From Oscillospiraceae bacterium (GTDB lineage: Bacteria; Bacillota; Clostridia; Oscillospirales; CAG-272): a stretch of DNA of 64,000 nucleotides. Each line of letters opens with the position of its first letter. Within the stretch, counting starts at the first letter, position 1. Where the stretch lies: the NCBI GenBank assembly GCA_015065005.1, contig SVRE01000003.1, positions 4,164 to 68,163 of the forward strand. The letters are read 5' to 3'. Both the position numbers and the translations under genes were made by a program. The notes beneath the pieces are model-generated. The model was not told where the DNA came from. It was given only the letters and a program-made list of their open reading frames with translations, and made no database searches. Below, piece after piece: positions 4,081 through 61,067 of this stretch.

Positions 4081-5081
4081 AATGGGAGCTGAATGAGCCC
4101 AAAAAAGGGGATATGATTCGCGTTCGCGCAGGCAGTATATATCACTACGGTGTATATGTCAGCGATAGCGAGGTTATTCAGTTTGGCTTAGCCCCAAATG
4201 CGCGCTTAAATGTTAAGGACTGTGATATAGAGGTTTTGTCAACCGACATAGATACCTTTTTAAACGGTGAGTTTTTAGAGGTGGCAGTTTTGGACAGGAA
4301 AGAAACTAAAATGCGTATTCCGCCCGAAAAAACGGTGGAAGCAGCGAGGGCGCGCATAGGCGAAAAGGGCTATAACATTTTACGCAATAACTGTGAGCAT
4401 TTTGCAAACGAGTGCGTAATGGGTCTAAAGAAAAGCTCTCAAGCGGATGACGTGCGTGAATTTTTCCGCAACCTTCCCATAGTTGACGTTTATCTTGGCG
4501 TAATTCCCGAAAAGGTAAAAATTTCCTCCGTTTACCCAAAGGAGAGGGCAAAGGAAATTAAGGCTTGCTCAAATGATAGGGTAAAAAGAGAGAAGTATTG
4601 TGCATGGAAGCTTTTGGAATATGCCCTTAACCGTACCTTTGGCGCTAAAATTAAGGAGCTTGAATTTATAAAGGGCGAAAACGGTAGGTGGTCAACCCCC
4701 ACACATCATTTTTCAATTTCCCACACAGACGGTATGGTGGCTGTTTCCGTTTCCCGTGCCATGGTTGGCGTTGATATTGAAAAGGAAAGCGATAAGCTTT
4801 TGTCCGTGGTCCCAAGGCTGCTTACACAGGATGAGCTTTTGGAATATGAAAAATTAGAGCAAGAAAGTAAGCTTTCCTACTTAGGCACTAAATGGACACA
4901 AAAGGAAAGCATATTCAAATCTTTAGATGAGAAAGGATTCATTCCACATAAAATTGAGGTAAAGGAATACGAAACCTACACGCGGGAAATAGAAACAGAG
5001 GGAAATAAATACTATTTGTCCGTTGCTACCCAAACCCCCGAAAGAGTGCGCCTTTATACTAATGTGGAATATTTAAAGTGA
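4077..5081 (+). CDS. Fusion of an LRAT/NlpC-P60-like domain with an Sfp-type 4'-phosphopantetheinyl transferase
   Basis: The N-terminal part has YHYGVYV and the NCEHFANEC motif of the LRAT/HRASLS family. The C-terminal part has ISHTDGMVAV, VGVDIE and WTQKESIFKS (PPTase motifs). Confidence 0.7.
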   Translation: MKWELNEPKKGDMIRVRAGSIYHYGVYVSDSEVIQFGLAPNARLNVKDCDIEVLSTDIDTFLNGEFLEVAVLDRKETKMRIPPEKTVEAARARIGEKGYNILRNNCEHFANECVMGLKKSSQADDVREFFRNLPIVDVYLGVIPEKVKISSVYPKERAKEIKACSNDRVKREKYCAWKLLEYALNRTFGAKIKELEFIKGENGRWSTPTHHFSISHTDGMVAVSVSRAMVGVDIEKESDKLLSVVPRLLTQDELLEYEKLEQESKLSYLGTKWTQKESIFKSLDEKGFIPHKIEVKEYETYTREIETEGNKYYLSVATQTPERVRLYTNVEYLK

Positions 5082-10400: not shown

Positions 10401-12218
10401 ATGAACGAAAAACAGAAAAATATAAGAAACTTTTCTATAATAGCTCATATTGACCACGGTAAATCAACATTGGCTGACAGAATACTTGAGTATTCAAATG
10501 CTGTTACCAAAAGGGAAATGGAGGAGCAGCTTCTTGATAATATGGACCTTGAAAGGGAAAGAGGAATTACTATCAAGGCACGTGCTGTCCGTATCGACTA
10601 TAAGCATAAGGACGGGCAGGAGTATGTTCTTAATTTGATTGATACCCCCGGCCACGTTGACTTTAACTACGAGGTTTCCCGTTCTCTTAACGCCTGTGAG
10701 GGTGCGCTGTTGGTTGTTGACTCCACCCAGGGTATTGAGGCGCAAACTCTTGCAAACGCATATTTGGCAGTGGATTGTGACCTTGAAATTGTGCCTGTTA
10801 TTAATAAAATTGACTTGCCCTCTGCCGATGTTGACAGGGTAAGGGGAGAAATCGAGGACGTTATCGGCATCATTGCTGAGGATTGTCCTGCAGTTTCCGC
10901 AAAGGTAGGTCTTAATATTGACCAGGTGCTTGATGCCATAGTTGAAAAAATACCTGCACCGAAGGGGGATACAGATAAGCCACTTAAGTGCTTGATTTTT
11001 GACTCTCACTACAATTCATATTTAGGCGTAGTAGTGTATGTGCGTGTAATTGACGGTGTTTTGAAGGCAGGCGACAAGATTAAGCTTATGAACACAGGCG
11101 CACAGTATGATGTGGTTGAGGTGGGCTACCTCAATGCCTTTGGCTTGCAAAAGAGTGAGCAGCTTAGCGCAGGTGAGGTTGGATATATTACCGCCAGCAT
11201 TAAAACCGTTAGCGAAACAAGGGTGGGTGACACTGTTACAACCGCAGAAAACGGAGCAGAGGAGCCGCTTCAAGGCTTCAAAGAAGCGCTTCCAATGGTA
11301 TTTTCGGGTATCTACCCCGCAGACGGTGCAAGATACAATGACCTTCGTGATGCCCTTGAAAAGCTTAAGCTGAATGATGCGGCATTGTCCTTCGAGGCTG
11401 AAACGTCAATCGCCCTGGGCTTTGGCTTCCGTTGTGGCTTCCTTGGTCTTTTGCATATGGAGATTATACAGGAGCGCTTGGAGAGAGAGTTTAATTTGGA
11501 CCTTATCACCACAGCCCCCAGCGTTATTTACAAGGTAGAAAAAACAAACGGTGAGGTTATCTTGGTTGATAATCCATCCAATTACCCACCAACAGATACA
11601 ATTAAAACTGCATATGAGCCAACAGTTAAGTCAAGCATTATTACCCCAACCGAGTATGTTGGCGGTATTATGGATTTGTGCCAGGACAGGCGTGGCACTT
11701 TCAAGGATATGAAATATCTTGACTCTTCCCGTGTTGAGCTTCATTACATTATGCCGCTTAATGAAATAGTTTATGACTTTTTTGACGCCTTGAAGAGCAG
11801 AAGTAAGGGATATGCGTCTCTTGATTACGAGTTATCGGGCTATGAGCCAAGTAACCTGGTTAAGCTTGATTTCCTTTTGAACGGTGAAATTGTTGACGCA
11901 CTTACCTTTATCGTACACGCCGATAAAGCATACACAAGGGCAAGAAAGATAGCTGAAAAGCTAAAGGATAACATTTCCCGTCAGCTCTTTGAAATTCCGA
12001 TTCAGGCGGCTATTGGCTCTAAGGTTATTGCAAGAGAAACCGTTCGCGCTCTTCGTAAGGACGTGCTTGCAAAATGCTACGGCGGTGATATCACAAGAAA
12101 GAAGAAGCTGCTTGAAAAGCAAAAAGAGGGTAAAAAGAAGATGCGCCGCTTAGGCTCTGTTGAGGTTACTCCGGAAGCGTTTATGGCAGTTCTTAAGCTG
12201 GACGACAGCGAGAAATGA
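10401..12218 (+). CDS. lepA: Elongation factor 4
   Basis: [21 protein letters not shown]-domain, DTPGHVDF, and the conserved LepA C-terminal domain. 605 aa. Confidence 0.97.
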
Positions 12219-57558: not shown

Positions 57559-57816
57559 TTATTCAAGGCTCTTTTTCATATCAAAGCTCTTAATATGTTC
57601 TTTTATGATATTTTCGTTAACGGTTATTTTTTCGTTTACAGCTCGATAAAGCAAATCCTTTAAATTGTCGAAAAAATCATTCAATTCATTTTTTTCAAGA
57701 AAATAATAAGTTAAAAACCAATAAATGTCAAGCTCATCATCTGTTAACACATGCCTGCTCAAATATTTGTATACTTCCCAGTCTAATTCGGTATGCACAA
57801 AAGCTTCTTTTTCCAT
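57559..57816 (-). CDS. Hypothetical 85-aa acidic protein
   Basis: ATG start with an RBS-like GGGG upstream. A terminator hairpin overlaps the stop. No motif was recognised. Confidence 0.45.
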   Translation of the reverse strand: MEKEAFVHTELDWEVYKYLSRHVLTDDELDIYWFLTYYFLEKNELNDFFDNLKDLLYRAVNEKITVNENIIKEHIKSFDMKKSLE

Positions 57817-57926
57817 AAAAACCCCTTATTTCTATCATTGCACTTGTATAGGTGCAAGAATATCTTAACATAATACTATAATAAAGTCAAGATATTGTTC
57901 TTAAATAAGTGCAGGAGGTTGTGGCT

Positions 57927-58151
57927 GTGAACGCAGATGTTGAAAAAAGAGTAGGGCAAAATGTTCGTTCATTGCGAGAAGCTAAGGGGTTTACCCAGGA
58001 GCAGCTTGCTACAAGGCTTCAACTCCGTGGGTGTGATATGACAAGAAGCGCGGTAGCCAAAATCGAGGTGGGACAAAGGCATCTCTACCCGGATGAAATA
58101 ATTTTAATAAAGGAAATTTTAAACGTTAATTACGAAGATATACTAAAATAG
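57927..58151 (+). CDS. XRE-family HTH transcriptional regulator
   Basis: HTH_3 motif (FTQEQLATRLQLRGCDMTRSAVAKIEVGQR). The GTG start at 57927 lies 8 nt after the AGGAGG RBS. Confidence 0.8.
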   Translation: MNADVEKRVGQNVRSLREAKGFTQEQLATRLQLRGCDMTRSAVAKIEVGQRHLYPDEIILIKEILNVNYEDILK

Positions 58152-58152
58152 C

Positions 58153-58180
58153 AAAAGAGCCTCAATCGAGGCTCTTTTTT
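58153..58180. terminator. Bidirectional intrinsic terminator
   Basis: AGAGCCTC / GAGGCTCT stem flanked by A4 and T6. Confidence 0.85.
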
Positions 58181-58194
58181 ACTTTGTTTCGCTA

Positions 58195-58288
58195 ATCATC
58201 ACTTTTGCAGCAAATGCAAAAATATCACTTGTCGTCAATGGACAAATATCACGCGGCAAAGCCGCATATCACAGGATGCATGGCATCC
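58195..58288. repeat. Array of four different hairpins, each preceded by ATATCAC (the first by ATCATCAC)
   Basis: Plus-strand reading: ATCATCAC-TTTTGCAgcaaaTGCAAAA-ATATCAC-TTGTCgtcaatgGACAA-ATATCAC-GCGGCaaaGCCGC-ATATCAC-a-GGATGCatgGCATCC. Confidence 0.7.
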
Positions 58289-58303
58289 ATAATTGACTTG
58301 CTT

Positions 58304-58354
58304 TTAGTGGCTTTGCTCCTTTGCCTTTGTTTCGCAGTATAAGCAACGGTAAAC
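58304..58354 (-). pseudogene. Orphan duplicate of the last 16 codons plus stop of pyrI
   Basis: 49 of 51 nt are identical to 58454-58504. Both differences are synonymous in the pyrI frame. Confidence 0.8.
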
Positions 58355-58453
58355 CATAGCCTCCATCTGAGAGGGAGGGGGACCGCAACGCATTTACTTT
58401 GCTTAGCACAAGGCAAGAAAAGCGGTGGAAGGAGAGAAAAGCAGACCTAACAG

Positions 58454-58882
58454 TTAGTGGCTTTGCTCCTTTGCTTTAGTTTCGCAGTATAAGCAACGGT
58501 AAACTCTGTTTTCCTTGTCTGTCAAGGTAAACACCTGGTCAAGCTCTTGCTCGCAGGATGTGATACAACGCGGATTTTTGCACGCAATTACATTTACCAA
58601 TCTCTCGGGCAGGGAAACGGTTTTCTTTTCTACAATTTTGCCGTCCTTAATAATATTAATTGTTACATCCGGGTCAACGTATCCAAGAATATCAGTATTT
58701 AAGGTGATGTCAGCATCGATTTTGATAATGTCCTTTGTGCCCATTTTTTTGCTATATACATTTTTGCCGATAACAATAGGGCAGTCAAGGCTATCAAGAT
58801 TTAAAAGGGAGTAAAGCTCCATACCGCGGCCTGCGGTAATATGGTCTATAACCATACCGTTTTTAATTGAATCTATATTCAT
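58454..58882 (-). CDS. pyrI: Aspartate carbamoyltransferase regulatory subunit
   Basis: 142 aa with the zinc domain CKNPRCIT...YRCLYCE. It directly follows pyrB. Confidence 0.9.
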   Translation of the reverse strand: MNIDSIKNGMVIDHITAGRGMELYSLLNLDSLDCPIVIGKNVYSKKMGTKDIIKIDADITLNTDILGYVDPDVTINIIKDGKIVEKKTVSLPERLVNVIACKNPRCITSCEQELDQVFTLTDKENRVYRCLYCETKAKEQSH

Positions 58883-60555: not shown

Positions 60556-60944
60556 GCTCCTTTGTAAAGGGAGCTGCCAGCTTTGCTGACTGAGGGATTG
60601 TTTTACCAAGCTATCAATGTGTCGACAAACCCACAAAAAGTTGTCGTGAATCTCATAATTTGGTATTCTCACCACAGTAAGCCCCGGTGACTTAAGATAG
60701 TCAGTTCTTTTTTCGTCGTTTTCGCTTTCTTCTTCGAACCCGTGCTGAAAACCATCAAGCTCTATTACTAAATTTGCCTTTGCGCAATAAAAATCTACAA
60801 TGTAATTTCCTATAACCTTTTGTATTAAAAACTTTATTGGATAAAACTTTAAGCAATCGTACCATAAGTGCTTTTCTTCGGTGTCATATTTTCCCTTAAC
60901 TCTTTAGCTAAGGGAACGATATTTTTGTTATGACTGTATTTCAT
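60556..60944 (-). pseudogene. Frameshifted DUF559 (Vsr-like) endonuclease-domain gene flanked by inverted hairpin repeats
   Basis: Manual translation gives MKYSHNKNIVPLAKELRENMTP, then a frameshift near 60876-60880, then EEKHLWYDCLKFYPIKFLIQKVIGNYIVDFYCAKANLVIELDGFQH...TVVRIPNYEI. The first frame hits a premature stop at 60849-60851. Confidence 0.75.
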
Positions 60945-61067
60945 GTCAAATCCCTCCGTCACCATGCGGGTGCCACCTTCCTTTACAAAGGAGGCTAAAA
61001 ATACTCGCACAAAGCAGGCGCAAAGCACTCGTGTAACTTAAAATTTCATTTCAATGGATTTGTTGGA

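Follow-up and report, generated by a model that had tools for sequence, protein, structure and literature searches.

A solo Gut-1 copy in the pyr operon 3' untranslated region of an Oscillospiraceae bacterium, a member of a dispersed family of intergenic hairpin arrays in gut Clostridia

The contig SVRE01000003.1 from an Oscillospiraceae bacterium contains, downstream of pyrI, a short array in which a constant 7-mer (ATATCAC, or GTGATAT on the other strand) alternates with hairpins. The window, that is, the whole stretch of DNA analysed, is 64,000 nucleotides long, and the array lies at its positions 58195-58288. An initial annotation made from the letters alone called the array "inverse-CRISPR-like" and could not match it to a known motif. 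It is, with little room for doubt, a member of Gut-1 (Rfam RF01706), and this holds for the general class of the element as well. Within that family it is a solo copy, having four hairpins and five linkers, two of which are degenerate. The array is most likely a dispersed, structured intergenic module, similar to the REP/BIME repeats, that has come to lie in the 3' untranslated region of the pyr operon. Taken as a whole, this explanation, with identity and setting as its firmer parts and a cis-acting punctuation role as its tentative one, is probably correct.

All coordinates given here are window positions read on the plus strand; the GTGATAT sense of the element is the minus strand, to which all of its parts are assigned. 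On the plus strand the array reads ATCATCAC followed by three exact ATATCAC linkers (58222..58228, 58246..58252 and 58266..58272), with a perfect hairpin after each. In this order, the hairpins are D (TTTTGCA-gcaaa-TGCAAAA, 58203..58221, with a 7 bp stem and a 5-nt loop), C (TTGTC-gtcaatg-GACAA, 58229..58245, 5 bp and 7 nt), B (GCGGC-aaa-GCCGC, 58253..58265, 5 bp and 3 nt) and, following a single A at 58273, A (GGATGC-atg-GCATCC, 58274..58288, 6 bp and 3 nt). None of the four stems has a mismatch and their sequences are mutually unrelated; the pattern first described, a constant 7-mer between four unrelated self-complementary stems, is correct to the base.

Two further linkers are less well preserved. 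The 3'-most linker on the minus strand (58195..58202, GTGATGAT) carries one extra base. It aligns to the final GUGAUAU linker of R1, a covariance model built from 67 arrays of other genomes with the window left out; orthologs have GAGATAT there. The fifth linker (ATAATTGAC at 58289-58297, GTCAATTAT on the minus strand) lies in the 5' flank of the element (AAGCAAGTCAATTAT, 58289..58303), where the Rfam alignment begins with CAAUUAU; both the Rfam model and R1 align through it. The linkers of the window copy are three exact GUGAUAU plus GUGAUGAU and GUCAAUUAU.

The identification rests on covariance models. An Rfam scan of the window at the gathering threshold gives no match. Without a cut-off, Gut-1 matches 58217-58295 on the minus strand over the full length of its model (positions 1-77) with 41.8 bits. 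The expectation value is 4.6e-7 in a local search and 8.1e-5 when the whole window is scanned with 4227 families, where Gut-1 is the best match; only one other match in that uncut scan reaches E <= 0.05, and it is weak and partial. R1 gives the window array 49.1 bits (E about 1e-7) and finds nothing else in the window. It gives 55.7 and 30.8 bits to the orthologous arrays of two relatives, here called L280 and L135, with no further matches in 134 kb; a search of 101 kb had L135 as its only match besides the window array. Rfam scans of 20 loci from the survey described below identify their arrays as Gut-1, at 52-67 bits against a cut-off of 50; in one paired element (L025) both halves are above it, at 59.2 and 52.0 bits.

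The published seed alignment of Gut-1 also includes members with GUGAUAU linkers and a layout like that of the window. As in the wider family, these have a terminator or a tRNA gene upstream and an inverted second half. With these seed members and the model matches, the array must be removed from the list of unrecognised motifs. The window copy shares with Gut-1 its short hairpins, of which there are at least three, the GUGAWAU linkers between them, the CAAU...AU 5' flank and the habitat, gut Clostridia metagenomes; its sequence is present in faeces, gut and bovine-gut metagenomes, and its closest relatives are metagenome-assembled genomes (MAGs) labelled "Clostridia bacterium." It differs from the Rfam model in having four hairpins rather than the three modelled, and from typical copies in its two long loops (5 and 7 nt) and in having no inverted partner. 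It also lies upstream of a terminator, while Gut-1 typically lies downstream of one.

Gut-1 itself was reported from human gut metagenomes only, with no sequenced organism, and was considered by its discoverers to be probably RNA and likely not cis-regulatory, with no function given (Weinberg et al., 2010, Genome Biol 11:R31, PMC2864571). Rfam types it as "Gene; sRNA." In the literature collection searched for Gut-1, no paper beyond that of 2010 was found. Ruminant and other animal gut MAGs now extend the habitat given in that description.

An array of this kind is not, of course, expected by chance. ATATCAC occurs 16 times on both strands of the 64 kb, against 6.2 expected; none of the 13 copies outside the array has an adjoining hairpin. 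By an estimate from the window counts, about 4e-5 clusters of three copies in 51 nt would arise by chance, with the flush hairpins not yet counted. In a control with viral contigs, hairpin spacers were present in only 2 of the 148 matches to this triple 7-mer pattern, the remainder being tandem repeats. Folded as RNA, the minus strand of the array gives -38.8 kcal/mol (z = -3.7, with none of 200 shuffles its equal), and the plus strand folded as DNA gives z = -2.8 against shuffles. The array is real and far from chance, as a comparison with shuffled sequence had been expected to decide. As a separate observation, the 7-mer is in excess outside the array too (for example at 4139, 12085-12094, 41538 and 41763), with 13 copies against about 6 in dinucleotide shuffles; this is probably an effect of codon usage.

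The family was surveyed by scanning one genome per species (185,579 species) for the pattern GTGATAT-N10-22-GTGATAT-N10-22-GTGATAT. This gave at least 119 loci; the family counts reported here (92 loci, 104 or 105 arrays) are among the matches listed. Hairpin-type spacers with variable sequence, as in the window, are found in 92 of the 119 loci, and the pairing of the 7-mer with hairpins is indeed found elsewhere, as the initial annotation had suggested looking for. All 92 are in gut or rumen MAGs of Clostridia/Bacillota, labelled Clostridia, Eubacteriales, Oscillospiraceae, Acutalibacteraceae, Ruminococcus, Christensenellaceae or Bacillota; the matches in other phyla are plain tandem repeats. 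No array match was found in plasmids, and phage sequences gave two partial matches, both in unannotated faecal "Bacteriophage sp." contigs. An 18-mer across a junction, searched in metagenome contigs, gave chance matches only.

Within the family, structure is conserved while sequence is not. In the 67 arrays of other genomes, each of the first six stem positions of the three hairpins shows all four Watson-Crick pairs, and 78-98% of cells per stem position are paired, against 29-68% after shuffling; in round terms the figures are about 90% and 30-50%. Perfect hairpins make up 72%. Spacers are 11-20 nt long and stems 4-8 bp, and loops on the GTGATAT strand include TTC, TTT, TGC, TAC, TTGC and TTAC. 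This bears out the core of the first proposal, that structure and a flanking motif are conserved while the stems vary. Gut-1 is found widely in gut Clostridia, as an intergenic module that is dispersed and under structural constraint. Its unit consists of three to five short Watson-Crick hairpins with 7-nt linkers between them, GUGAUAU or GUGAAAU on one strand and AUAUCAC on the other.

The alternation of constant and variable parts is, superficially, what might be expected of an array that acquires units by recombination, whether through attC-like sites or as a CRISPR turned inside out, and the orthologous arrays at pyrI do differ by one unit (four against five). The likeness goes no further. 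Different genomes carry homologous hairpins at equivalent positions (TGAAACC-TTGC-GGTTTCA and TGAAGCC-TTAC-GGCTTCA are one such case), and 103 of 105 arrays have three or four linkers. With units near-fixed at 3-5, the "inverse-CRISPR-like" array is better described as a structured module that diverges than as one that acquires units. CRISPR arrays combine conserved repeats of about 23-50 nt with unique spacers, whereas here the constant part is a 7-mer, the variable parts are palindromes, and there is neither a leader nor a cas-like neighbour. The attC sites are imperfect palindromes of roughly 60-140 nt with R''/L''-L'/R' cores, found beside cassettes and the IntI integrase. The hairpins of the window are 13-19 nt long, GTGATAT does not fit GTTRRRY, no cassettes or integrase are found among the window ORFs (open reading frames) or the neighbours of other arrays, and no protein family is linked to the arrays. 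The suggestion of attC-like sites falls with these differences, and acquisition in either form is extremely improbable.

The pyrI gene (58454..58882, minus strand; PF01948 and PF02748) is the last of the pyr operon. A later 150-bp insertion in the window lineage, made up of a new pyrI 3' end and a 99-nt element, displaced the original pyrI end and the array downstream. The displaced ancestral end, stop codon included, is the pyrI remnant that had been noted from the sequence (58304..58354, minus strand); it is a 51-nt copy of 58454-58504 with two mismatches, and the array at first came straight after its stop. On the other side of the array is a bidirectional intrinsic terminator (58153..58178), common to the pyr operon on the minus strand and to an XRE gene on the plus strand, which was the second landmark. 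A transcript carrying the array would end at it, and the same terminator is found in L135.

Relatives were fetched by means of pyrI proteins 90-98% identical to that of the window. Six contigs of the same species (L001-L006) are 100% identical and, therefore, uninformative. The array is at the same site in two further lineages, L135 (pyrI 96%) and L280/L281 (pyrI 92%). In both L135 and L280 an intact pyrI stop is directly followed by AAGCAAG... and the array, which runs in the GTGATAT sense, and then by a terminator; in these and in the window copy the array starts 15-40 nt past the pyrI stop. The array in the window and in the two sister lineages is thus part of the pyr operon 3' untranslated region, in the GUGAUAU sense. 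The early suggestion of a multi-hairpin 3' untranslated region fits this position, with pyrI stop, array and terminator on the mRNA-sense strand in all three lineages. No link to the adjacent XRE gene is seen, L135 and L280 carrying the array without it.

Comparison of these pyrI-downstream regions, which the initial annotation had proposed, shows that all four hairpins persist. Hairpin A has the same stem throughout, with loops CAT, TAC and TCC. Hairpin B shows two compensatory pairs, G-C to A-T and G-C to T-A, its stem being GCGGC/GCCGC in the window, ACGGC/GCCGT in L135 and ACGTC/GACGT in L280. In C and D the outer pairs are preserved and the length varies, complementarity being retained: C is TTGTTGC-tct-GCAACAA in L280 and TTGTC..GACGA, with one T:G pair, in L135; D keeps TTTTGC/GCAAAA in both, with a 9 bp stem in L280. 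The number of units is four in the window and five in L135 and L280, the extra hairpin and linker being at the point that corresponds to 58289..58303.

Elsewhere in the family, arrays are most often intergenic (97 of 105) and show no bias of orientation relative to neighbouring genes, the split being about 50:50 for solo and paired arrays alike. About two-thirds (68/105) have a reverse-oriented array within 170 nt downstream, forming a convergent pair, and minimum-free-energy folds of these paired elements pair GTGATAT with ATATCAC. Solo arrays, with no reverse-oriented array on either side, number 28 of 105, that of the window included; 27 of them have full flanks on both sides. A recurring layout begins with a tRNA-CCA or a gene end, followed by an intrinsic terminator, "CA" and GTTATAT-TCGCC..GGCGA-GTGATAT... 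It continues through GGCGAATATA and three ATATCAC-hairpin units, and then reaches the promoter of the next gene. A tRNA or tmRNA gene lies within 400 nt at 17-18 loci, and at one locus (L043) another gene shows the order found at the pyrI site, stop codon, array, terminator.

The arrays also behave as repeats. Contig ends have 18 of 104 arrays within 100 nt, where 1.8 would be expected, and 30 of 104 within 300 nt, against 5.5. Single MAGs contain paralogs with sharp borders, in which the shared part is the terminator and array (L099) or the complete pair (L064). When linkers are matched in relaxed form, two or more arrays within 8 kb are seen at 50 of the 105 loci, and several MAGs have matches on more than one contig. 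The 64 kb of the window hold one copy only. The paralog and ortholog borders examined show no target-site duplication. Clustering of 424 ORFs within 2.5 kb of arrays gave no common family, the largest cluster representing 7 of about 92 loci; no transposase, RAYT-like, RHH (ribbon-helix-helix), integrase or cas gene is associated with the arrays among these ORFs.

The best real protein association is a PF05635 gene just downstream, at 5 loci. PF05635 is the family of the 23S rRNA intervening-sequence protein, which forms a four-helix bundle. In L021 (5990-6530), L034, L106 and L110 such a gene lies immediately downstream of a Gut-1 pair, as does a pseudogene in L108. The -35 box of the PF05635 gene (TTGACT or TTGACA) begins right after the last ATATCAC; in L106 and L110 the last ATATCAC is followed by TTGACT-N17-TATAAT and the gene. 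The 5' flank of the window array reads TTGACT on the plus strand (58293-58298) with no gene behind it, and corresponds to the -35 box of the next gene in full-length relatives.

The closest analogy to this behaviour would be with REP/BIME in Enterobacteria and BOX in Streptococcus pneumoniae, which are dispersed extragenic palindromic or modular repeats, often at the ends of operons or between convergent genes. Like them, Gut-1 appears to be multi-copy, and it is intergenic, independent of orientation, built of hairpins and short linkers, often arranged in inverted pairs and prone to break assemblies. REP stems, however, are conserved within a genome, while those of Gut-1 differ with each unit and copy, the linker alone being constant. 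There is also no sequence similarity, and no transposase cluster among the 424 neighbouring ORFs, RAYT genes elsewhere in the genomes not having been searched for.

How might such a module act? The hairpins would fold whenever the region is single-stranded, most directly in a transcript that crosses it. The Gut-1 module could then serve as local punctuation at the end of a transcription unit, where it would shield upstream RNA from 3'-to-5' decay or block read-through between neighbouring units; the conserved linkers would be the likely contact sites for a putative factor. This mechanism, acting in cis, is advanced tentatively, as one that may well have to give way to another. A regulator specific to pyr was considered and rejected, the same module being found in dozens of unrelated contexts.

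RNA that covers the motif is available at one other locus. No RNA run searched for the window contains its organism, which was found in DNA metagenomes only. At L025, a canonical copy with tRNA genes adjacent, contigs of four metatranscriptomes cover the motif with a summed depth of 45-960, against 1-100 for the reverse half and 0-3 for the neighbouring coding sequence. These contigs suggest that Gut-1 copies are transcribed, and are suggestive only.

Transcription of the motif would also suit a free-standing gene for a small RNA (sRNA) that acts in trans, its four single-stranded GUGAUAU linkers sequestering an RNA-binding protein. A repeated single-stranded motif between hairpins is the classic layout of a sponge, as in CsrB and RsmZ, which sequester CsrA, and orientation independence is what an autonomous gene would show. 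The Rfam type and the opinion of the original authors, a likely RNA that is not cis-regulatory, point the same way. Such a gene would, however, need a promoter, for which there is no room: the arrays start 15-40 nt past the pyrI stop in the window, L135 and L280, and canonical copies start 2 nt past a terminator. No promoter was found at a fixed distance, the stems show no wobble signature, and many copies per genome with widely differing stems would be unusual for a trans-acting sRNA. For the array to be such a gene is unlikely.

The reading of the array as a Gut-1 copy that acts as cis punctuation in RNA would be more compelling were it not for several facts that weigh against it. Its 41.8 bits are below the curated cut-off of 50, so that Rfam's own pipeline would leave the window copy unannotated; this cut-off is, of course, an operational threshold and not a biological feature. 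Two linkers have drifted in L135 (GTAATGT and GTAATAT), and constraint on the 7-mer may be weak here. Most close relatives (L007-L014, L134, L136, L277-L279 and L282) have no array; at the site there are other genes, a DUF559 gene or no more than a terminator. This, in turn, means that the array is dispensable for pyr expression; it is therefore old at the pyrI site and maintained in structure, and yet dispensable. Many canonical copies begin 2 nt past the T-tract of a terminator, and would enter RNA only by read-through. The RNA coverage comes from L025 and is unstranded; most of the contigs are 90-95% identical, and so represent other copies, multi-mapped, and DNA carry-over is possible. Stems contain 19 G:T against 25 A:C, so there is no preference for wobble pairs, which is odd for an RNA selected on one strand, and wobble pairs give no signal by which to assign the strand. 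Finally, the GNA- or GNRA-like loops are on the ATATCAC strand, opposite to the mRNA sense in the window.

Stems with no wobble signature, arrays oriented independently of genes and loops that differ between the strands keep alive a reading in which Gut-1 works as DNA, or as single-stranded DNA (ssDNA). It might be a selfish repeat of the MITE or REP type, copied by an enzyme that recognises hairpins, or an array of protein-binding heptads. Covariation that is Watson-Crick only, with G:T no commoner than A:C and 72% of hairpins perfect palindromes, would be expected of DNA, as would the orientation that ignores flanking genes and the inverted pairs formed by 68 of 105 arrays. The enrichment at contig ends, the paralogous copies and the presence or absence among close relatives are what a mobile repeat would leave behind. 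GNA-type loops are found on one strand, and such loops give very stable DNA mini-hairpins.

Proteins that bind sequences of this kind are also known. HigA2 of Mycobacterium tuberculosis, an XRE-family protein, binds ATATCAC-N6-GTGATAT (PMC11205783). The omega (ParB, RHH) repressor of plasmid pSM19035 binds the heptad WATCACW, in arrays of 7-10 consecutive 5'-WATCACW-3' repeats (PMC9499535). The Gut-1 linker with its next base, TATCACT or TATCACA, fits this consensus, as do 2 of 4 linkers in the window (one of each form), and the copies form direct repeats, joined by inverted ones in paired elements. If the palindromes were extruded, the distance between heptads would change. Omega sites, however, are contiguous and lie in plasmid promoter regions, whereas the Gut-1 heptads are chromosomal, number dozens, and have 11-20-bp palindromes between them (13-19 bp in the window). 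The comparison is one of resemblance only; no omega-like gene was seen nearby, a cognate protein having been sought among the neighbours only.

Against the DNA-level reading stand the lack of an associated transposase, RAYT-like or RHH gene in 92 loci and the lack of target-site duplications. For a cruciform to extrude from duplex DNA, stems of 5-7 bp are short. Copies kept with compensatory changes at orthologous sites (at pyrI and at tRNA-Gln loci) argue against neutral junk. A DNA-level element is, on balance, a somewhat doubtful possibility. A particular form of it, in which Gut-1 is DNA punctuation and not an sRNA, with omega-type heptads (TATCACW) brought into register when the palindromes between them fold out, is very unlikely. 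If true, ssDNA or transcription-driven supercoiling would extrude the palindromes, and GTGATAT-ATATCAC pairing within the convergent pairs would make or break a contiguous protein-binding array between transcription units. Covariation restricted to Watson-Crick pairs, independence of orientation and a location between a terminator and the next promoter are all compatible with it.

The neighbourhood of the window array holds other elements. The 99-nt insert (58355-58453) lies between 51-nt direct duplicates of the pyrI 3' end (58304-58354 and 58454-58504); the downstream copy matches relatives better, and is therefore ancestral. A target duplication of 51-57 nt is unusually long. The same insert is present in L134 (pyrI 98%) at about 1930-2090, with a 57-nt duplication, and absent in L135 and L280. 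It resembles the right end of DUF559 elements, with CTCTCCTTC, a hairpin and then CCTCCC..GGAGG. A 16-nt motif like the pyrI end (GCGAAACAAAG-TAAAA and variants) has four copies, at 58177-58192, 58320-58335, 58392-58407 and 58470-58485. One copy lies between the array and the terminator (recurrence 58182-58192) and one inside the 99-nt insert; these copies may be the trace of repeated rearrangement at a hotspot.

A frameshifted DUF559 (PF04480) pseudogene lies between pyrF and pyrE in the window (about 60560-61010, minus strand; E = 1.2e-20 for the 3' frame). Intact DUF559 ORFs are found at varied sites of the pyr operon in L007 (3097-3390), L009 (446-814), L010 (3867-4157), L134 (2334-2708) and L282, and the gene appears to be mobile around this operon. 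The DUF559 elements (L010 3600-3670 and 4150-4220; L007 2935-2985) have inverted-repeat ends, each made up of one hairpin (CCTTCTCC-AGC-GGAGAAGG), then a second hairpin, and a constant motif, ATGAGGAGAG. The stem of the second hairpin varies between the two ends and between copies, which makes these ends a second system of constant motif plus variable hairpin in the same genomes. In L010 (3540-3625) there are degenerate tandem copies, of about 20 nt, of the DUF559 half-hairpin. The possibility that a DUF559 element has the array as its non-coding arm was dropped after the identification of Gut-1; the two are separate hairpin-bearing elements that share a hotspot.

Beyond the terminator, the XRE-family helix-turn-helix gene (57909-58151, plus strand) is divergent from an ORF of 85 amino acids (57559-57816, minus strand) that has no Pfam match. 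Their shared promoter region contains long palindromes (57839-57913). Some relatives (L012) carry this pair and others (L135 and L280) lack it; it may be a small regulatory or toxin-antitoxin-like cassette.

The result is, then, a correction: an apparent "inverse CRISPR" turns out to be an orphan motif, catalogued in 2010, in a copy that scores below the threshold, and the window array is to be annotated as Gut-1-like and not as a pyr regulator. It also adds to what was said of Gut-1 at that time. The motif is widespread in animal-gut MAGs of Oscillospiraceae, Acutalibacteraceae and Christensenellaceae and usually forms a convergent pair. It abuts terminators and tRNA genes, shows no wobble pairing, behaves as a dispersed repeat in assemblies and has a linker that falls within a known heptad consensus. 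Together, these new descriptive facts turn the choice between an RNA gene and a REP-like punctuation element of DNA or RNA into a concrete, testable question.

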